From Bacteroidota bacterium (GTDB lineage: Bacteria; Bacteroidota; Bacteroidia; J057), in the NCBI GenBank assembly GCA_003696835.1, contig RFHT01000822.1, forward strand, positions 1 to 12,008: a DNA stretch of 12,008 nt. The letters are read 5' to 3'. The position numbers were made by a program, and so were the translations under genes. Positions 1,909 through 12,008 of this stretch are shown here, piece after piece. The notes under the pieces were generated by a model. That model was not told where the DNA came from, did not search any database, and worked only from the letters and a program-made list of their open reading frames with translations. Each line of letters starts with the position of its first letter. Position 1 is the stretch's first letter.

Positions 1909-2499
1909 CTAAGCTAATACGTCAACTTCCAGTCCTGCATCCTTCAATTTCTGGTACAAGCCGGGGAATTCCCCCTCATAAATAGCTAACGTCTGCGTAC
2001 AGCTATCCGTGTAAGTTGCATCCACCAGCTCAGTGTCATAAGGATGTAAGATACGATTAATTTCTGAAGTTTGGGAATAGGGAAAATGCAGGCGGAAGGT
2101 AATTTTGGGCACCAGGGGTTCTCTGGCCAGGCCCTCCAGGGCTGCTTCGGCAGCCGAACGGTATGCCTCAATGAGGCCTCTGATGCCCAGTTTGGTCCCC
2201 CCGAAGTAGCGAACCACCACGACCAGCACATTGGTGAGCTCCGCAGCATGTATGGCTGCCAGTATGGGCGGGCCCGCGCTGTGGGTGGGCTCGCGGTCGT
2301 CGGTGGCATACGCTTCTTCTCCCTTTGCTCCCAGCCGCCAGGCATAGCAATGGTGGCGGGCGTCGTAATACTTTTTTTTCAGCTCACGCAGCCGCTGCCC
2401 AATTTCTTCCTGGCTGTGCACCGGGAAAGCAAAGCTGTAAAACTTCGACCCCCGGTCTTTGACCAGTCCTTCTCCTGCTTCTTTTAGTTGGAACAACAC
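1909..2499 (-). CDS. yigZ: YigZ / IMPACT family protein (UPF0029 N-terminal domain plus C-terminal DUF1949-like domain)
   Basis: The 196-aa ORF carries family-diagnostic motifs, 'DRGSKFYSF', 'DARHHCYAWRLG' and 'VVVVRYFGGTKLGIRGL', which align to E. coli YigZ (KKSRFIT / DARHHCVAW / VVVRYYGGILLG). The track start is GTG at 2497-2499. The stop at 1909-1911 lies only 7 nt from the protease GTG/ATG, so the two genes are probably co-transcribed. Confidence 0.85.
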   Translation of the reverse strand: MLFQLKEAGEGLVKDRGSKFYSFAFPVHSQEEIGQRLRELKKKYYDARHHCYAWRLGAKGEEAYATDDREPTHSAGPPILAAIHAAELTNVLVVVVRYFGGTKLGIRGLIEAYRSAAEAALEGLAREPLVPKITFRLHFPYSQTSEINRILHPYDTELVDATYTDSCTQTLAIYEGEFPGLYQKLKDAGLEVDVLA

Positions 2500-4875: not shown

Positions 4876-5565
4876 ATGACCGAACTTTTTCATCTCGCTT
4901 TTTCAGCTCCCCACCTGCCCTACACCATGCTGTTGCTGCTTATTCTGCTGTACTGGATGACGGTGATCATTGGGGCCCTGGATCTGGACTTTCTCAACAT
5001 TGAAGTTGACACGCCCGATATGGACCTGGATGCAGATATCGATATGGACTTAGACACAGAAGTGGAGGTGGATACAGAGGTGGAGGCTGGCCAGGAGGTT
5101 GCGGCTGGCGGGGGGGCATGGCTGCTGAAAACCCTGGCCTTTTTCAATATAGGCAAGGTGCCCTTTATGGTATTTTTGAGCATGTTTGTACTGGCGCTTT
5201 GGGTATCTTCTGTGCTCAATTATCACTACTGGGGACACGCCTTCAAGGATTTTTTCGCCTGGTGGTTTTTGCCCAATGTGCTCATTGGTCTCTTTGCTGC
5301 CCGGCTGCTTACCGCGCCATTTAAAGGTACATTTGCCACCATGAACCAGGAAGGCCGTAGTAAGCGGGAACTGGTGGGAAAAACCGGCGAGGTGGTGATG
5401 CGCATAGGAGCGGGAAAAATAGGCCGCCTGGAGGTCTTTGATGGCGAAGAACATTACAGCCTGGACGTAAAGGCAGCAGGCAACAAGGTGATAGAAAAAG
5501 GTCAGCAAGCCATAATAGTAGAGTATAATCCCCAAAAGGATATGTACCTGGTAGAACCCTTTTGA
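4876..5565 (+). CDS. YqiJ-like / NfeD-like inner-membrane protein (N-terminal TM, acidic linker, two TM helices, C-terminal OB-fold beta-barrel)
   Basis: This 229-aa ORF has a hydrophobic N-terminal helix (MLLLLILLYWMTVIIGAL) and a central pair of TM helices (FMVFLSMFVLALWVSSVL / FLPNVLIGLFAARLL). Its C-terminal ~70 aa, 'GKTGEVVMRIGAGKIGRLEVFDGEEHYSLDVKAAGNKVIEKGQQAIIVEYNPQKDMYLVEP', match the NfeD/YqiJ OB-fold tail in pattern and size (E. coli YqiJ is about 209 aa). It sits immediately upstream of a flotillin gene, as in yqiJK and yuaF-floT. Confidence 0.75.
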   Translation: MTELFHLAFSAPHLPYTMLLLLILLYWMTVIIGALDLDFLNIEVDTPDMDLDADIDMDLDTEVEVDTEVEAGQEVAAGGGAWLLKTLAFFNIGKVPFMVFLSMFVLALWVSSVLNYHYWGHAFKDFFAWWFLPNVLIGLFAARLLTAPFKGTFATMNQEGRSKRELVGKTGEVVMRIGAGKIGRLEVFDGEEHYSLDVKAAGNKVIEKGQQAIIVEYNPQKDMYLVEPF

Positions 5566-5621: not shown

Positions 5622-7832
5622 ATGGATAGTATGTTAACTTCAGTTCTGATCGTAAGCGGCAGCATCATTGCCATTGTAGCGCTGGGGTTCATTATTGGAA
5701 TCTCAAGCTTTTACCGCAAGGTCACACAGGGAAAAGCACTGGTGAGAACCGGATTTGGAAAAACCAAAGTGGCATTTAAGGGGATGTGGGTCATTCCTCT
5801 GCTGCACAATGTGGAGATCATGGACACCTCCCTTAAGCAGGTTACGATCAGTCGGGAAGGCAAAGACGGCCTGATATGCCAGGACAATCTGCGGGCCGAC
5901 ATCAAAGTCGTCTTTTTTGTGCGGGTAAACTCCACCATGGATGATGTCAAGCGGGTGGCCAGTACCATAGGCTGTGCCCGAGCCTCAGATCCCGAGCTGC
6001 TTATCACCCTGTTTGAAGCCAAATTTTCCGAAGCCCTCAAAACCATTGGTAAGCAGTTTGACTTTGTAGAGCTGTACAATGCAAGGGAAAAATTCCGGGA
6101 GGAAATCATCAATCTCATTGGCCGTGACCTCAACGGCTACCTGCTGGACGATGCCGCCATCGACTATCTCGAACAAACGCCCATAGAATACCTGGATGAA
6201 GACAACATACTCGATGCCGAGGGGATCAAGAAAATCCGTGATCTGACGGCCAGGCAAATAACGCTGGCCAACAAAATTCAGCGCGAAAAGGAAAAAGAGA
6301 TCAAGAAGCAGGATGTAGAAGCCCAGGAGGCCATACTGGAACTGGAAAAGCAGTTGGTAGAAAAAGAAGAAATACAGAAAAAGGAAATTGCCTCCATACG
6401 GGCGCGGGAGCTTTCCGAAACGCGCACCATACAGGAGCAGGAATCGGAAAAGGCCGAACTGGCCCGCATTGCCAAAGAGCGCAGCCTGAAAATTGAGAAA
6501 GAAAATATGGAGCGCGACATCATTGTGGCTCTGAAAAACAAAGAACGGACCGATGTAATCGAAACTGAAAAGGTGAAGCGCGACCAGGAGCTGGAAATGA
6601 CTGAAAGGGAGCGCATTGTATCCATTGCCCAGATTGAAAAAGAAAAGGCCATTGAAGAGGAGAAAAAGAACATACAGGATGTGATACGCGACCGGGTAGC
6701 CGTGGAGCGCGAAGTGGTAGAAGAACAGGAGAAGATCAAAAATACCGAGGCCTTTGCAGCGGCCGAACGTGATAAAAAAGTGGCCATCACCCAGGCTGAG
6801 CAAAAAGCAGAAGAAGAGCTGGTACAAAAGATCAAAGCGGCCGAGGCCGACAAACAGGCAGCCTCTTTGGAGGCAGACCGCCGCATCATCTCGGCCAATG
6901 CGGAGCGCGAAGCGGTGGATAAGGAAGCCGAGGCCAAGAAAATCATGGCCGACGCCCTGGCTGAGGAGCATGCCGCCATCGGCCTGGCCGAAGCCCGCGT
7001 AATGGAAGCCAAAGCCCAGGCCAAAGAAAAAGAAGGCGAAGCCGAAGCCAGCATACTGGAACAAAAGGCCCTGGCCGAAGCCAAAGGCATAGAAATGAAA
7101 GGCCAGGCACAGGCCGGTGCCAACCAAAAACTGGGGCAGGTAGAGGCCCAGCTCAACATTGACAAAGGCCTGGCCGAAGCCACAGTCATAGAAGCCAAAG
7201 CCCAGGCCCAAAAGAAAATGGGGCTCACCGAGGCCGAAATCATCGAACAAAAAGGCGTAGCCGAAGCCAAAATTGTAGAGCAGAAAGGCCTAGCCGAAGC
7301 CAAAGGCGTAGCAGCCAAAGCCAAAGCCATGCAGGAGCTCGATGGCGTGGGCCGCGAACACGAGGAGTTTAAATTAAGACTCGAAAAAGAAAAAGCCATT
7401 GAGCTGGCCGGCATTGAAATTCAAAAAGACATAGCCGCAGCCCAGGCACAGGTGCTGGCTGAGGCCCTCAAATCTGCCAATATTGACATCGTGGGTGGCG
7501 AACAGGAGTTCTTCGAGCGAATTACCCATGCCGTCAGCCACGGAAAATACATGGACCGCCTGCTGGATAACAGCCAGCATTTGCTGGACGTAAAGAAGGC
7601 CCTCCTGGGCAATGGAAAAGAAAATGGGGACTTTGGCCAAAATCTTCGTAAATTTATCGCCCAGTTTAGTCTTTCTTCCGAGGATATCAAAAACCTGAGT
7701 ATTTCTGCCCTTATTTACAAAATGATGGAACAGACCTCAGACCCCGGCAAGAAAAATGTACTGCAGCAGTTGTTGGCTTCCGCTACCCAACTGGGAATTG
7801 ATGGCAAGAAGATTGACAGCATTTCTGCTTAG
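5622..7832 (+). CDS. Flotillin-like SPFH/band-7 protein (YqiK/FloT-like) with extended EA-rich coiled-coil
   Basis: This 736-aa ORF starts with an N-terminal TM helix (VLIVSGSIIAIVALGFIIGI). An SPFH domain follows ('KALVRTGFGKTKVAFKGMWVIPLLHNVEIMDTSLKQVTISREG...ADIKVVFFVRV'), then a ~350-aa E/K/A-rich coiled coil with EA repeats. The flotillin-type C-terminus 'ANIDIVGGEQEFFERI' is present. Minus-strand ORFs 5985..7250 and 6278..7414 are low-complexity shadows of the repeat region. Confidence 0.85.
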   Translation: MDSMLTSVLIVSGSIIAIVALGFIIGISSFYRKVTQGKALVRTGFGKTKVAFKGMWVIPLLHNVEIMDTSLKQVTISREGKDGLICQDNLRADIKVVFFVRVNSTMDDVKRVASTIGCARASDPELLITLFEAKFSEALKTIGKQFDFVELYNAREKFREEIINLIGRDLNGYLLDDAAIDYLEQTPIEYLDEDNILDAEGIKKIRDLTARQITLANKIQREKEKEIKKQDVEAQEAILELEKQLVEKEEIQKKEIASIRARELSETRTIQEQESEKAELARIAKERSLKIEKENMERDIIVALKNKERTDVIETEKVKRDQELEMTERERIVSIAQIEKEKAIEEEKKNIQDVIRDRVAVEREVVEEQEKIKNTEAFAAAERDKKVAITQAEQKAEEELVQKIKAAEADKQAASLEADRRIISANAEREAVDKEAEAKKIMADALAEEHAAIGLAEARVMEAKAQAKEKEGEAEASILEQKALAEAKGIEMKGQAQAGANQKLGQVEAQLNIDKGLAEATVIEAKAQAQKKMGLTEAEIIEQKGVAEAKIVEQKGLAEAKGVAAKAKAMQELDGVGREHEEFKLRLEKEKAIELAGIEIQKDIAAAQAQVLAEALKSANIDIVGGEQEFFERITHAVSHGKYMDRLLDNSQHLLDVKKALLGNGKENGDFGQNLRKFIAQFSLSSEDIKNLSISALIYKMMEQTSDPGKKNVLQQLLASATQLGIDGKKIDSISA
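6981..7330 (+). repeat. Intragenic imperfect tandem repeats (EA-repeat coiled-coil region of the flotillin gene)
   Basis: Units such as gccgaagccaaagcccaggcc, ggcctggccgaagcc and gccgaagccaaaggc recur. They encode reiterated 'GLAEA(K/R/T)x(I/V)EAKAQA' and 'EQKG(L/V)AEAKG(I/V)' modules. Confidence 0.6.
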
Positions 7833-7877
7833 ACAAGCCTCAACAAAATGGAGTGTTGAAGTATGGAAGCATCGGGC

Positions 7878-7891
7878 TCCTACTTTGCACA
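7878..7891 (+). promoter_or_regulatory. Shared 14-nt motif TCCTACTTTGCACA, copy 2 (92 nt upstream of the lipoprotein gene)
   Basis: This is identical to 4586-4599. It lies in the 150-bp gap between the flotillin and lipoprotein genes. Confidence 0.3.
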
Positions 7892-7982
7892 GCGATGTGA
7901 TTAACATTATACCCACTTGATGTGAACATATTTTGACACTCCTCTTTCCCTCTGCCGACTACCAGCCATTTAGCCACCCAAT

Positions 7983-8618
7983 ATGCTAGCTATGCCCAGG
8001 TTGTTCATGTTGATCCCTCTGTTTTTGCTCTTGTTTGCCTGTGGAGAAGGAAGGCAACAGCATGCCCCCCCCAGCCGTATTCAACGCATTGTACAGCTGG
8101 CTGCCGACTCTTCTGCCCTTAGGCGGTACGTACAGCTACAGGAGGGCGATATACAGTTTGAACAAATGCAGTGGACAGCCGTGAGCCCGGCAGAAAAAGG
8201 CTATTCCTATATGGAAATTTACAATGTATATGAAGCGGCTGATGGCAGCAGGGAGTACTATGTGCTGGAGTTTGAGCTGGATACCACCCAGCTGCAGGCC
8301 CGCCAACCCATTACGGACTATCAGTTGGTTGTAAAGCCCGACACTGCTTTTATTCAGTTGGAAGAACAAGCGGTATTTCAACTGGAAAAAAAATTGCTGC
8401 TGCAGGCCGGAGGCCAGCAGTTTGAGGTATATAAACTGCTGGGATTCCGGCATCCGCAGGACCGGGAAGCTGTTCACTACAAATACTGGAGTCCTGAATT
8501 TGGCACCTTGCTCATTTATTCTGGCGAAAAGGAGACATTTGAACTGACTGCAGACCCGCACAGGCAGGAAGCCATTCCCCAACTGATTGATGCCATTAAA
8601 CGAGATATTCATCCTTAA
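7983..8618 (+). CDS. Hypothetical lipoprotein
   Basis: This 211-aa ORF begins with a lipoprotein-type signal peptide, MLAMPRLFMLIPLFLLLFAC, which has an LFAC lipobox. The alternative start at M4 (7992) gives MPRLFML.... No family is recognisable from the rest of the sequence. The gene lies 150 bp after the flotillin gene and 18 bp before the giant ORF, on the same strand. Confidence 0.6.
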   Translation: MLAMPRLFMLIPLFLLLFACGEGRQQHAPPSRIQRIVQLAADSSALRRYVQLQEGDIQFEQMQWTAVSPAEKGYSYMEIYNVYEAADGSREYYVLEFELDTTQLQARQPITDYQLVVKPDTAFIQLEEQAVFQLEKKLLLQAGGQQFEVYKLLGFRHPQDREAVHYKYWSPEFGTLLIYSGEKETFELTADPHRQEAIPQLIDAIKRDIHP

Positions 8619-8636
8619 CCTCATTATTTGCTGCAC

Positions 8637-11600
8637 ATGGCTGATGTAAAAAATGCCCCGGCCCCAAAAACGGAACTTGAAGGGAGCACCTACCAGATCA
8701 TACAAAAACGCCTGAAAAAACAGGCCGCCCTCTTACAAGAGCAGCTGAACCAACTCAACGAAAGCCGCAAACAAGTATTTGGGGCCGTAGAAACCCGCCT
8801 GGTGGGCACCAACCGCATTACCACTGCCAACAACTGCATTCCCAAAGACATGGTTTCTGTCGGCAAGCAGTTCTTGTTTGGCTACAATGTTCACATTGGG
8901 CTGCGGTCGGAGATCAGGCTGGAAGATGTCTTCAGCCTTTATCGCTTTGAAGCCGAAGATCATAGTTTCCATCAGCAGGAGCTATCTCTCCTGGCCGACA
9001 AGCAGTTTGAAGAAGACTTCAAAAACCTCTATAAGTATTACAAGCATACCGTCTTTGCCAAATTTGCCCTGGTCGGACCGCATTTATTCATGGTATTTCA
9101 GGTGGGCAAGGGTCCGGGGGATGTCAAAACCTTCAAGTGGGCGCTGCAGGAGCACAGCCTCAGCTACCTGGGCAACCGCTTCGACCACGAATACAAGTTT
9201 CCCGATCAGCACGAGTTTGTGTGGAAACGCACCAACCGCGACATGCACCGCAGGGGCAAGCACCCCCATATCTCCATTCTCGACCGGGTATTTGTAGAAA
9301 CGGTGGGGGGAGACCTCACCATAAAGGTGGAGGACAATACCGATAGCGGCCAGGGCATATACGCCGAAGAGGTGACCCACAAAGAGCAAACCCTGGACGA
9401 TGCCGAAGTGGCCTACGCCGACCTGGGCAACCTCATCGTATTGCGCATACGTCCCTACCAGGAAAAGACTTACCGCTACTTCATTTTCAACGAAAAAATG
9501 CAGGAAGCCCTGCGGGTGGACAGCCTCGAACACGCCTGCGTGCTGCTACCCGATGAGCAGGGCCTCATTTTTGCCAACGGTTACTACCTGCAAACTGGTG
9601 AATACAAAATTTTTGACCACGCCATACAAGACCTGCAGTTCGAAAGACGCATAAGTTCTCCCAATGGAGAGGATTTCCTCTATGTTTTTTACAATCCCCA
9701 TACGGGCCTTTACGTGCTGCTGCAGTACAACCTGGTTAACCAGCAGGTAGCTACTCCAATTTTATGTCATGGGTTTTCTCTGTTCAGCAATGGAGAATTG
9801 TGCTACTTCCGGGCCGAAGACCAGCCCGGCAGGCATCACACCCTCCAAATTTGGCAAACGCCCTATACCCGCACAGAGATACGTACACAGGAACATACAG
9901 ACTCCTACCTCTTCAAGATAGGCAACAAGGACATTGTGCGTGCCATGGCCGAATGCAATGAGTTGCTTACCCTCATCCACAAAGGCGACACTTATACCAA
10001 TCTTTATATAGACCTGGTGCAGCATACCCAAAGCATGCTGGACAGTTATTACTGGATCAAACACCCCGAGGCAGGTGCTCTGGGTGAGCCCCTGCAAGCC
10101 ATTGGGCAAATAGCTGCTGCGGCCATAGATGAATTCGAAAAAGTGCGCCGTATCCGCCAACATACTGAAGAAGCAATACAAGCCGCAACGGATCGCCTGG
10201 AGCAATTGCTGCATCAGATTAAAAGGCACAAGGCCAAAAGCATTGAGCAGTATGTGCACCACCTGGCCGAATTGCGGCTGCTCAGGGGAGAAATCATTGG
10301 CCTGAAAGAGTTACGATACGCTAATACCGAAAAAATTGAACTGCTGGAGCAGCAAGTGGCCGGGCAAACCCAGAAACTCTCAGCAGACTGCATACAATTT
10401 TTGCTCAAAGATACTGCCCTGGCCCCCTACCGGGAACAGCTTTTACAGCATGAAGCTGCCATTGCCAAAGTCGAAAAAGTGGCCCAGGCCCGGGAAGCGG
10501 CCAAAGCCATTGACCAAACCGCAGGCGAACTCGAGCTGCTTATTGAGGTAGTGAGCAACCTCAAAATTGAGGATGCCACCGAAACTACCCGCATTATTGA
10601 GCAAATTTCGGATATTTATGCAGGCGTAAACCAGCTCAGGGCCCGCCTCAAGACCCGCCGCAAAGCCTTGCTGAGCCAGGAAGCCACTGCCGAGTTTCAG
10701 GCCCAGCTGAAATTGCTGGAGCAGGCGGTGGTCAACTACCTCGAATTGTGCGACAGCCCCCCCAAATGTGACGAATACCTCACCAAGCTCATGGTGCAGC
10801 TCGAAGAGCTGGAAGGAAAGTTTACTGAGTTTGATGAATTTGCCGATCAGCTGGCCCAAAAACGGGAGGAAATCTACCAGGCTTTTGAATCCAGAAAACT
10901 CAGCCTTACCGAAGCCCGAAACAAACGCGCCAACAACCTCCTGAAGGCCGCCGAACGCATACTGAAGGGCATACAAAACCGCCTGGCTGCTTACGAAGAA
11001 GTGAAGCAGATCCATGCCTACTTTGCCTCTGACCTCATGGTTGAGAAAGTGCGCGATATCATTGCCCAACTGCAAGCCCTTGAAGACAGCGTAAAGGCCG
11101 GCGATATTCAGGCGCGCCTTAAAAGCGTAAAAGAAGACGCCATTCGGCAGCTTAAAGACAAAAATGAGCTCTTCGTAGCCGGCAACAACCTCATACAGTT
11201 TGGCAGGCATCATTTCAGTGTCAATATTCAGCCCCTGGACCTTACCCTGCTTCCGCGCGAAGGCCAGATGTATGTACACCTTAGCGGCACCAATTTCTTT
11301 GAACAAATCGACCAGCCCGAACTGGAGAAAACCCGGGCAGTATGGGAGCAAAGCCTCCTCTCGGAAAACCAGCAGGTATATCGGGCTGAGTATCTCGCCT
11401 GGCAGATGTTTCAGACCGGGCAGTTTCCCCAGGATACCACACTTCCCGGCCTGCAGCAAAGCCTCAGAAAATTTATGGTCACCCGCTACCAGGAAGGCTA
11501 TACCAAAGGGATACACGATGCCGATGCCGCACGCATCCTGCACGAGCTCATACAACTGCATGCCCGGATCGACCTGCTAAGGTATGCTCCCCGGGCCCGG

Positions 11601-12008
11601 GCCTGTGCCTCCCTTTACTGGCATAGCCTCATGGGGGCCGACGAAAAACAGCTCATGAGCAGCCGTCTCAAAGGGGTCGGCATCATTTTGGAGCTCTTTC
11701 CTGATACCCGCGAGTTTGGCGACCTCGTTACTGATTTGCAGGAACACATCCGCATGTTTACGGCCCGCAGCCACCTTTTTGAGGAGGGCTTGGCCCTCGA
11801 AGCAGGCGAATACCTCTTTTTTGAGCTCAGCCGGGGCCAGCACTTCATCATCAGCCTGGAAGCTGCAGAGCTGTACCAATCCTTTCAGGCTTTTTTGAAA
11901 AAGCAAAAGATTAAGAGCAAGTTTGACCAAAGCATCGCACAACTCGCACATGCACCTGAAGAGCGCTTTGACCTGATCAGGAGCTGGCTCAGTGCCTTTA
12001 CCGCCCAG
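8637..12008 (+). CDS. Large hypothetical protein of at least 1124 aa, 3'-truncated by the window end; no recognisable catalytic or nucleotide-binding motif; N-terminal beta-rich repeat-like region followed by a long alpha-helical/coiled-coil region
   Basis: Manual frame-0 translation from the ATG at 8637-8639 (MADVKNAPAPKTELEGSTYQIIQKRLKK...) reaches nt 12008 without a stop, giving 1124 codons. It is absent from the ORF track, presumably because it has no in-window stop. The track lists only out-of-frame plus-strand fragments and minus-strand shadow ORFs there (9084..9533, 9762..10262, 10443..11561, 11577..11951). No frame-0 ORF is listed anywhere downstream of 8616, which agrees with a single open frame. 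I found no GxxxxGK[ST] motif. Confidence 0.8.
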   Translation, partial: MADVKNAPAPKTELEGSTYQIIQKRLKKQAALLQEQLNQLNESRKQVFGAVETRLVGTNRITTANNCIPKDMVSVGKQFLFGYNVHIGLRSEIRLEDVFSLYRFEAEDHSFHQQELSLLADKQFEEDFKNLYKYYKHTVFAKFALVGPHLFMVFQVGKGPGDVKTFKWALQEHSLSYLGNRFDHEYKFPDQHEFVWKRTNRDMHRRGKHPHISILDRVFVETVGGDLTIKVEDNTDSGQGIYAEEVTHKEQTLDDAEVAYADLGNLIVLRIRPYQEKTYRYFIFNEKMQEALRVDSLEHACVLLPDEQGLIFANGYYLQTGEYKIFDHAIQDLQFERRISSPNGEDFLYVFYNPHTGLYVLLQYNLVNQQVATPILCHGFSLFSNGELCYFRAEDQPGRHHTLQIWQTPYTRTEIRTQEHTDSYLFKIGNKDIVRAMAECNELLTLIHKGDTYTNLYIDLVQHTQSMLDSYYWIKHPEAGALGEPLQAIGQIAAAAIDEFEKVRRIRQHTEEAIQAATDRLEQLLHQIKRHKAKSIEQYVHHLAELRLLRGEIIGLKELRYANTEKIELLEQQVAGQTQKLSADCIQFLLKDTALAPYREQLLQHEAAIAKVEKVAQAREAAKAIDQTAGELELLIEVVSNLKIEDATETTRIIEQISDIYAGVNQLRARLKTRRKALLSQEATAEFQAQLKLLEQAVVNYLELCDSPPKCDEYLTKLMVQLEELEGKFTEFDEFADQLAQKREEIYQAFESRKLSLTEARNKRANNLLKAAERILKGIQNRLAAYEEVKQIHAYFASDLMVEKVRDIIAQLQALEDSVKAGDIQARLKSVKEDAIRQLKDKNELFVAGNNLIQFGRHHFSVNIQPLDLTLLPREGQMYVHLSGTNFFEQIDQPELEKTRAVWEQSLLSENQQVYRAEYLAWQMFQTGQFPQDTTLPGLQQSLRKFMVTRYQEGYTKGIHDADAARILHELIQLHARIDLLRYAPRARACASLYWHSLMGADEKQLMSSRLKGVGIILELFPDTREFGDLVTDLQEHIRMFTARSHLFEEGLALEAGEYLFFELSRGQHFIISLEAAELYQSFQAFLKKQKIKSKFDQSIAQLAHAPEERFDLIRSWLSAFTAQ

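Follow-up and report, generated by a model that had tools for sequence, protein, structure and literature searches.

A close described counterpart of the locus analyzed here is an operon reported from comparative genomics by Ravi et al. 2024 (mSystems, PMC11237479), in which genes for CesT/Tir, PspA, YqiJ/YuaF, and Band-7/flotillin proteins are accompanied by one for an ATPase made of a beta-propeller, a coiled coil, and an AAA+ domain. The same authors noted that a PLD hydrolase is sometimes added to this operon and that abbreviated versions of it, lacking PspA, have a wider distribution, drew an analogy to ESCRT-III/Vps4, and proposed ATP-dependent membrane remodelling or chaperone-like assembly of membrane complexes. 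Our subject is a stretch of 12,008 nucleotides from a Bacteroidota bacterium (contig RFHT01000822.1 of assembly GCA_003696835.1, hereafter the window), and more specifically the open reading frame (ORF) that begins at position 8637 of its plus strand and is still open at the last nucleotide. This ORF almost certainly represents the 5' part, 1124 codons long, of a gene encoding a cytoplasmic ATPase of about 1,620 residues (hereafter the giant), whose AAA+ domain was lost to the contig end, and which stands last in a conserved module of same-strand genes. The last three genes of the published operon are probably represented in the window, in the same order and with the same architectures, and the row for the Bacteroidetes species Dokdonia donghaensis in Table S3 of Ravi et al. 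gives the gene order of our module. The window, however, fits the abbreviated form only; it lacks the CesT/Tir-PspA dyad, and it also carries an extra orphan lipoprotein-like gene between the flotillin and ATPase genes. The extended form with CesT/Tir and PspA was reproduced in 21 of the related loci described below.

This reading frame is a real gene, in spite of its absence from the mechanically generated ORF list for the window, where the region is covered only by shorter, overlapping ORFs, the longest of which (372 aa) lies at 10443-11561 on the minus strand. The omission results from how the list is made, since ORFs running off either end are left out, and says nothing about the sequence itself. 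Upon translation, positions 8637-12008 yielded 1124 codons and no stop, as claimed in an earlier note on this DNA, which had also recognized that the list showed antisense and out-of-frame ORFs in place of what is indeed the largest gene in the window. In the same 3372 nt, the other two plus frames contain 29 and 47 stops and the three minus frames 9, 46, and 66, and the probability of finding 1124 open codons by chance, as calculated from base composition, is about 5e-22. The comparison of codon usage and third-position GC content with the minus-strand ORFs, proposed in the same note, also favoured this frame: GC content at codon positions 1, 2, and 3 is 0.61, 0.32, and 0.63, and a codon model derived from the remaining Pfam-supported genes of the window gave it a score of +0.416 bits/codon, compared to +0.216 for the best (in-phase) antisense frame, with all remaining frames scoring negative. 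One could argue that the plus frame is open by chance or belongs to a decayed pseudogene, and that the minus-strand ORFs are the true genes, as the in-phase antisense frame has few stops (9) and its 372-aa ORF scores 0.27 bits/codon. A weakly positive in-phase antisense frame, however, is the usual shadow of a real gene; the sense frame outscores the antisense everywhere, including across the 372-aa ORF (0.489 vs 0.274 bits/codon), and its product is 52-67% identical over its full length to hundreds of proteins, whereas none of six antisense or out-of-frame ORFs had a Pfam match. Based on stop counts, codon scores, and the lack of family matches, the minus-strand ORFs were ruled out as genes, and we regard the likelihood of this alternative as negligible. 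The ATG at 8637, with the upstream in-frame stop ending at 8618, is consistent with the N-termini of the homologues. More generally, ORF tracks that drop edge ORFs hide real genes and show their antisense shadows, and edge ORFs should be listed as partial.

Although the earlier note had seen no assignable motif in the encoded protein, a Pfam search returned DUF3686 (E=2e-193) and DUF7902 (E=1.5e-28; Table 1), the former being described by Pfam as an 'ATPase involved in DNA repair'. NCBI already lists an identical 1124-aa protein under the name 'MAG: AAA family ATPase, partial [Bacteroidetes bacterium]'; its contig measures 12,008 bp, so that the window corresponds to the entire contig, and the gene had been annotated before as a partial one. 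A search covering 5.8 billion proteins identified 6044 homologues at E<=1e-10; 119 proteins showed 52-67% identity to the giant at 99-100% query coverage, and the best full-length homologues, of approximately 1600-1700 aa, are collinear with it and carry an extra AAA domain. When 1.84 billion cluster representatives were scanned with HMMER, 1423 clusters (at 50% identity) were found at E<=0.001, and 461 at E<=1e-30. Identity to relatives in four other phyla, calculated over the N-terminal 1,124 residues, ranges between 34 and 39%. No NCBIfam match was obtained for the giant and its three module neighbours. With a match over the full DUF3686 profile, a DUF7902 domain, and collinearity over all 1124 residues, the protein agrees with the DUF3686/DUF7902 'DNA repair ATPase' family, from whose full-length members the window copy differs in ending at residue 1124, without the AAA+ module. 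The gene is, in other words, an already catalogued, deposited, and computationally described family member, and what was noticed in the window was a gap in an annotation track rather than a discovery. The description of the protein as uncharacterised in the earlier note holds to the extent that no experimental study of this ATPase was found in the literature on flotillin, AAA+ ATPases, and YqiK, but not with regard to its classification, given the two Pfam domains, the more than 6000 homologues, and the NCBI name.

The relatives also indicate what the contig end removed. In the family alignment they extend about 500 residues past the last residue of the window, and the AAA/AAA_5 match in the full-length relatives begins around residue 1255-1280, approximately 140 residues past the contig end. 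All of the complete relatives collected (77/77, 1618-1886 aa, from five phyla) carry a Walker A motif GYGKT(T), a Walker B motif ending in DDIQ, where an Asp occupies the position of the usual catalytic Glu (DD and not DE), and an AGNP motif. Residues 1-1124 contain neither a Walker A nor an HExxH motif, as had been noted earlier; the missing P-loop, however, is not a property of the protein, because the contig ends at residue 1124, ahead of the AAA+ domain. A longer copy reaching beyond position 12008 was not found, as an exact match was obtained to this very 12,008-bp contig alone, and the relatives in genome collections are at most 61% identical. As a separate observation, the ATPase core of the relatives visibly varies much less from one phylum to another than their first 1,124 residues do.

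Structural predictions were obtained for both parts of the protein. The AlphaFold2 model of the 1124 residues, built from a 76-sequence alignment (mean pLDDT 82.6), places an all-beta domain near the N-terminus, followed by extended helical regions (Table 1), and no transmembrane-like segment was found in aa 1-1124. The 27-28 or so strands counted in the modelled all-beta domain would fit seven blades, and its domain-sized Foldseek matches in the PDB are beta-propellers, namely Sec12, the propeller of prolyl oligopeptidase, CyRPA, and thiocyanate dehydrogenase. The top-ranked, longer hits were propeller-plus-helical IFT-A and nucleoporin chains, and none of the Foldseek hits exceeded 12% identity. 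A 'protocoatomer-like' reading of these top hits was considered and rejected on account of TM-scores of about 0.1 and of helices that are long and spectrin-like and do not form a solenoid. The helical part has spectrin-like structural matches, and no specific solved relative of the giant emerged from the PDB sequence and Foldseek comparisons; with a full-length relative and a C-terminal profile as queries, only the Walker A region resembled PDB sequences, those of p97 and RuvB. For the part beyond the contig end, we modelled the C-terminal 502 residues of the closest full-length relative. This model is of low confidence (pLDDT 64) and matches AAA+ ATPases only, with the MoxR-class NorQ first, followed by RuvB, Lon, ClpA, CbbQ, Vps4, and p97. 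The AAA_5 profile spans nearly the whole core in the relatives, at 24.6-26.6 bits (cut-off 22).

These results bear directly on the database name, under which the giant would be an ATPase with long coiled coils, akin to SMC, Rad50, and RecN. In addition to the NCBI and Pfam labels themselves ('DNA repair ATPase' and 'ATPase involved in DNA repair'), such a reading could draw on the long helical segments and on the weak resemblance of the Walker A region of the relatives to RuvB. Residues 1-1124, however, have no N-terminal ABC-type head and no Walker A motif, no SMC/Rad50 family match was seen in Pfam or NCBIfam, and the N-terminus is predicted to be a beta-propeller, with the ATPase of the relatives located at the C-terminus and predicted to adopt an AAA+ fold. 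Furthermore, the helices resemble spectrin-type bundles and not an antiparallel SMC arm with a hinge, and the conserved neighbours are membrane proteins and PspA rather than repair genes. No literature supporting the name was found, and searches for DUF3686 or PF12458, or for 'DNA repair ATPase' together with flotillin, returned nothing. The name is probably misleading, with no support here, and a function in DNA repair appears very improbable.

The genomic context of the family was analyzed in 100 related loci; most of them (80) are metagenomic, 16 were taken from genomes, and 4 from annotated records. At least 3 kb of DNA was available upstream of the giant in 74 loci, and in 72 of these a flotillin-like gene precedes it on the same strand; from the flotillin stop codon to the start of the giant, the distance has a median of 170 nt. 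Outside the Bacteroidota, the same pairing occurs in Proteus, in the Pseudomonas plasmid pQBR103, in Streptomyces, and in Deinococcus, where the flotillin orthologues show 37-46% identity, and likewise in a Verrucomicrobia contig, so that the near-obligatory adjacency to flotillin spans five phyla. A YqiJ-like gene was detectable in 54 of the 63 loci with sufficient upstream DNA, and no conserved gene was found downstream of the giant. The genes nearest upstream of the YqiJ-like gene were PspA_IM30 (15 loci), CesT_Tir_1 (13), and PLD-like (3), and by tblastn PspA was found upstream in 21 loci, or, when only loci with sufficient upstream DNA were counted, in 18/53, about a third. Such neighbours place the module in a context of membrane stress. 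In the window itself tblastn gave no match to PspA or CesT, and the gene upstream of the module is a divergent metallophosphoesterase.

The giant family was also found on large plasmids. In the 425-kb plasmid pQBR103 of Pseudomonas fluorescens SBW25 (locus L017, 85-98 kb), the module ends a longer same-strand cluster that reads, in order, PspA/IM30, a rhomboid protease, DUF2491, DUF350, DUF1190, a glutathionylspermidine-synthase-like (GspS-like) protein, a hypothetical protein, SPFH, and a 1748-aa ATPase. Among the 'plasmids' of PLSDB, NZ_OL790812.1 and NZ_OL790811.1 (Proteus mirabilis) and NZ_LT559118.1 (Nonomuraea), with sizes of 4.1 Mb and 11.9 Mb, are evidently chromosomes, and therefore the 13 'plasmid' hits obtained overstate the plasmid carriage of the family.

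With regard to the conserved partner, the flotillin-like protein of the window (736 aa) had no Pfam match at full length even at E<=10, but its residues 1-240 alone matched Band_7 (PF01145) at E=3.6e-14, above the cut-off. The long coiled coil, rich in E, A, and K, probably triggers the composition filter of HMMER and masks the SPFH domain, which automated annotation would miss. The protein has a single N-terminal transmembrane segment (aa 9-27) with K/R residues after it, a coiled coil of about 400 aa with an E+A+K content of approximately 51%, and then a conserved C-terminal region; according to the positive-inside rule, its bulk (SPFH domain and coiled coil) is probably cytoplasmic. An AT skew of 0.35-0.53 (A over T on the plus strand) at positions 6001-7500 coincides with the E/K/A-rich coiled-coil part of this gene and is therefore an effect of codon composition and not a replication signal. 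The first gene of the module encodes a 229-aa protein whose transmembrane segments are accompanied by a DxD-rich acidic loop and, at the C-terminus, by a small beta domain. It scored 21.8 bits against YqiJ_N (PF21001), whose cut-off is 23 bits, and E=0.18 against the NfeD C-terminal domain, and five out of ten of its orthologues matched YqiJ_N. The acidic loop (aa ~36-72, nt 5045-5084) consists of alternating acidic residues (DLDFLNIEVDTPDMDLDADIDMDLDTEVEVDTEVE) and is partly encoded by an 18-nt imperfect tandem repeat; across the ten orthologues D56 and D58 are invariant, and D43, D45, D52, and D60 nearly so, and the loop may bind cations. Searches of PDB sequences with the flotillin-like and YqiJ-like profiles gave no useful match. 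As in the YqiJ-YqiK pair of E. coli and the YuaF-FloT pair of B. subtilis, a gene for a putative NfeD/YqiJ-like membrane protein precedes one for a flotillin composed of a transmembrane segment, an SPFH domain, and a coiled coil, even though the flotillin-like protein of the window is longer, and its full length escapes Pfam detection. Pairs of this type often occur without the giant ATPase (Ravi et al., PMC11237479).

The space between the flotillin and giant genes is variable, and exceeded 400 nt in 24/85 loci, with unrelated cargo. In the window this slot (7833-8636) holds a 211-aa lipoprotein-like ORF, which had no match in Pfam, NCBIfam, or PADLOC and no relative in the first 16 related loci, and other loci hold small orphan ORFs. 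In one locus (L039) the slot (6833-9928) contains an S26 signal-peptidase-like gene and a 601-aa gene of no assigned family. Defence genes occupied the slot in 3 of the 24 loci, as NsnABC is found in L007 (5536-9040) and PDC-S02, a YhcG/DUF1016 PD-(D/E)xK nuclease, in L012 (9112-9933) and L078 (8799-9815). In L010 (8371-11045), where the giant is found without a flotillin gene upstream, Septu PtuA/PtuB follows directly downstream.

Such cargo raises the question of whether the module, or the giant itself, could be an anti-phage or conflict system, with a large NTPase sensing infection at the membrane and triggering a response. The defence genes inside the slot in three loci and next to the giant in a fourth would agree with this reading, as would the occurrence of the family on large plasmids. 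PspA, moreover, has historically been tied to phage-induced membrane stress. When the four module proteins were compared to 5027 PADLOC (2.0) models, however, only the giant gave a hit, a weak one of the coiled-coil type (E=5e-5) that corresponds to a helical stretch of a cyclase model, and no match to the giant was found in 50,697 phage genomes. The gene order is stable and the divergence moderate over five phyla, no effector domain (nuclease, protease, TIR, or pore-former) is present, and most slots are empty or hold small ORFs of no assigned family. Because hotspots of accessory genes collect defence genes in general, their co-location with the module is weak evidence, and a defensive function seems improbable. 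The defence genes found near the module fit an accessory-gene insertion site better than a defence function, and the slot has the look of a place within a conserved operon where accessory or defence genes insert.

The explanation that we favour, comprising both the identity of the gene and its mechanism, is that the giant would use ATP to remodel or chaperone flotillin/PspA assemblies at the membrane. As a whole we would give it a probability of roughly 0.6, and the mechanism alone about an even chance. In this model, the flotillin-like protein would be anchored by its one N-terminal transmembrane helix, with the SPFH domain and the coiled coil facing the cytoplasm. SPFH proteins build large oligomeric scaffolds or cages. 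The soluble giant might then dock, via its propeller and its helical, spectrin-like arm, on the flotillin scaffold or on recruited PspA polymers, and, when the membrane is stressed, its C-terminal AAA+ ring might build up, remodel, or take apart the scaffold or its clients, possibly in the way Vps4 acts on ESCRT-III or FtsH works in HflK/C cages. Topology, physical interaction, substrate, and ATP-driven remodelling are what we infer in this proposal; the analysis itself shows a real gene, its family and fold, its truncation, its linkage to flotillin across five phyla, and that to PspA/CesT in about a third of the loci.

Neither analogue fits completely. The resemblance to ESCRT-III/Vps4 lies in an AAA+ ATPase gene beside the gene of a membrane-remodelling polymer, with PspA found in about one third of the related loci, and PspA/Vipp1 being the bacterial ESCRT-III. 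Vps4, however, has an MIT domain, a classical AAA core, and a DE Walker B, while the giant family has a propeller, a spectrin-like arm, and an invariant DD Walker B. With HflK/HflC-FtsH the module shares the genetic coupling of an SPFH-family scaffold to an AAA+ ATPase at the cytoplasmic membrane. FtsH is a membrane-anchored protease of the classical AAA type and the SPFH domains of HflK/C are periplasmic, whereas the giant is soluble, MoxR-like, and devoid of a protease domain, and the bulk of the flotillin is predicted to be cytoplasmic.

A further possibility is that the ATPase acts on membrane proteins gathered in the flotillin microdomain, and not on the scaffold or PspA. The giant would in that case be a maturation or insertion chaperone of the MoxR type, or an extraction factor, and flotillin a mere platform, as HflK/C is for FtsH. 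The C-terminal module of the relatives has its best structural matches in the MoxR-class proteins NorQ and CbbQ, AAA_5 covers nearly the whole of their core, and some relatives are named 'MoxR-like ATPase' by JGI. The pattern after Walker B (…DDIQH.NPEFLQKF…) and around AGNP is one that we take to resemble MoxR motifs. A beta-propeller is, in addition, a typical platform for binding clients or peptides, and Ravi et al. lean towards a chaperone-like function, in the assembly of membrane complexes. On the other hand, RuvB, Lon, ClpA, Vps4, and p97 match the low-confidence C-terminal model (pLDDT 64) almost equally well, and no conserved client gene is linked to the module, in which the recurring neighbours are limited to the YqiJ-like and flotillin-like genes, joined in some cases by CesT and PspA. 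MoxR proteins are of about 300 aa and work with VWA-domain partners, but the giant has an N-terminal extension of 1,250 aa and no VWA-domain gene was found among the conserved or recurrent module neighbours. We consider an action on such clients a serious alternative, though a less likely one.

Several findings weigh against the reading that we favour, i.e. ATP-driven work on flotillin/PspA assemblies. The ATPase domain lies outside the window, and its presence in this very gene is extrapolated from the relatives; the window has neither PspA nor CesT; and the YqiJ/NfeD assignment of the 229-aa protein falls below the Pfam cut-off. In 2 of the 74 loci (L010 and L014) the giant has no flotillin gene directly upstream, defence genes are occasionally found inside or beside the module, and adjacency of genes is no proof of physical interaction. 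The core, moreover, seems closer to MoxR proteins than to the classical unfoldase clade of Vps4 and Cdc48, and has the DD Walker B in 77/77 relatives; instead of a disassembly motor, the giant could therefore perhaps be an ATPase that is slow, switch-like, or of the chaperone type. Lastly, no experimental evidence was found for any function of the DUF3686 giant family.

Of the remaining genes of the window, the YigZ/IMPACT-family gene and the gene for a calcineurin-like metallophosphoesterase with a CBM9-like domain (646 aa) are divergent from the module, unrelated to it, and shared by none of the 100 related loci. A 600-aa protein carries a T9SS C-terminal sorting domain, which points to a Bacteroidota origin, along with weak matches to M36/fungalysin-like metallopeptidases, and the 498-aa ORF that overlaps its gene has no family match and looks like an antisense shadow. 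Rfam, tandem-repeat, and promoter/terminator scans of the window revealed nothing relevant, the sigma-70 consensus not being appropriate for Bacteroidota.

Table 1. Features of the window, with positions counted from its first nucleotide.
Feature	Residues	Position	Strand	Basis
Protein with T9SS C-terminal sorting domain	600 aa	100-1902	-	
Overlapping ORF, shadow-like	498 aa	388-1884	+	
YigZ/IMPACT-family protein		1909-2499	-	
Metallophosphoesterase	646 aa	2557-4497	-	
Putative YqiJ/YuaF (NfeD-like) membrane protein, first gene of the module	229 aa	4876-5565	+	Near-cut-off YqiJ_N match, architecture, position
Flotillin-like SPFH protein, conserved partner gene	736 aa	5622-7832	+	Band_7 match of N-terminus, transmembrane segment, composition, linkage
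Orphan with lipoprotein-like signal peptide, in the variable slot between flotillin and giant	211 aa	7983-8618	+	Hydrophobic N-terminus ending ...LLFAC
Giant ATPase gene (DUF3686/DUF7902/AAA+), first two-thirds (5', no stop)	1124 codons	8637-12008	+	Open frame, codon statistics, Pfam, NCBI identity
Giant: N-terminal helix	16-48		+	AlphaFold2 model
Giant: DUF3686 (PF12458)	33-472	8733-10052	+	Pfam, E=2e-193, 643.4 bits (cut-off 25), profile positions 2-448 of 448
Giant: all-beta domain, predicted beta-propeller fold	54-407	8796-9857	+	AlphaFold2 model and Foldseek
Giant: long helical region, helices of up to 58 residues, predicted spectrin-repeat-like bundles or coiled coil	424-844	9906-11168	+	AlphaFold2 model
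Giant: DUF7902 (PF25472), within the helical region	594-676	10416-10664	+	Pfam, E=1.5e-28, 99.2 bits (cut-off 26)
Giant: small beta unit	853-890	11193-11306	+	AlphaFold2 model; flanking segments (844-867) of low confidence
Giant: helical domain, followed in full-length relatives by a linker and the AAA+ module	916-1123	11382-12005	+	AlphaFold2 model

The window adds one more truncated copy to a widespread family (1423 clusters, at least five phyla). The question of an energy-dependent step was already posed by Ravi et al. 2024, and the window cannot answer it. The giant might even be an ATP-driven machine dedicated to remodelling the flotillin and PspA (ESCRT-III-like) assemblies of bacteria, an idea that we put forward only tentatively, as a rather unlikely one, and that comes from the family and the operon and not from anything special to the window. 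If it were true, the giant would be a functional counterpart of Vps4 for bacterial membrane repair, with an unrelated, MoxR-like motor and an invariant DD Walker B, and accessory and defence genes would repeatedly insert into the gap between the flotillin and ATPase genes, where they would be expressed together with a response to membrane damage. The near-obligatory pairing with flotillin and the frequent pairing with PspA make this ATPase a reasonable candidate for the energy-dependent step in flotillin/PspA membrane maintenance.

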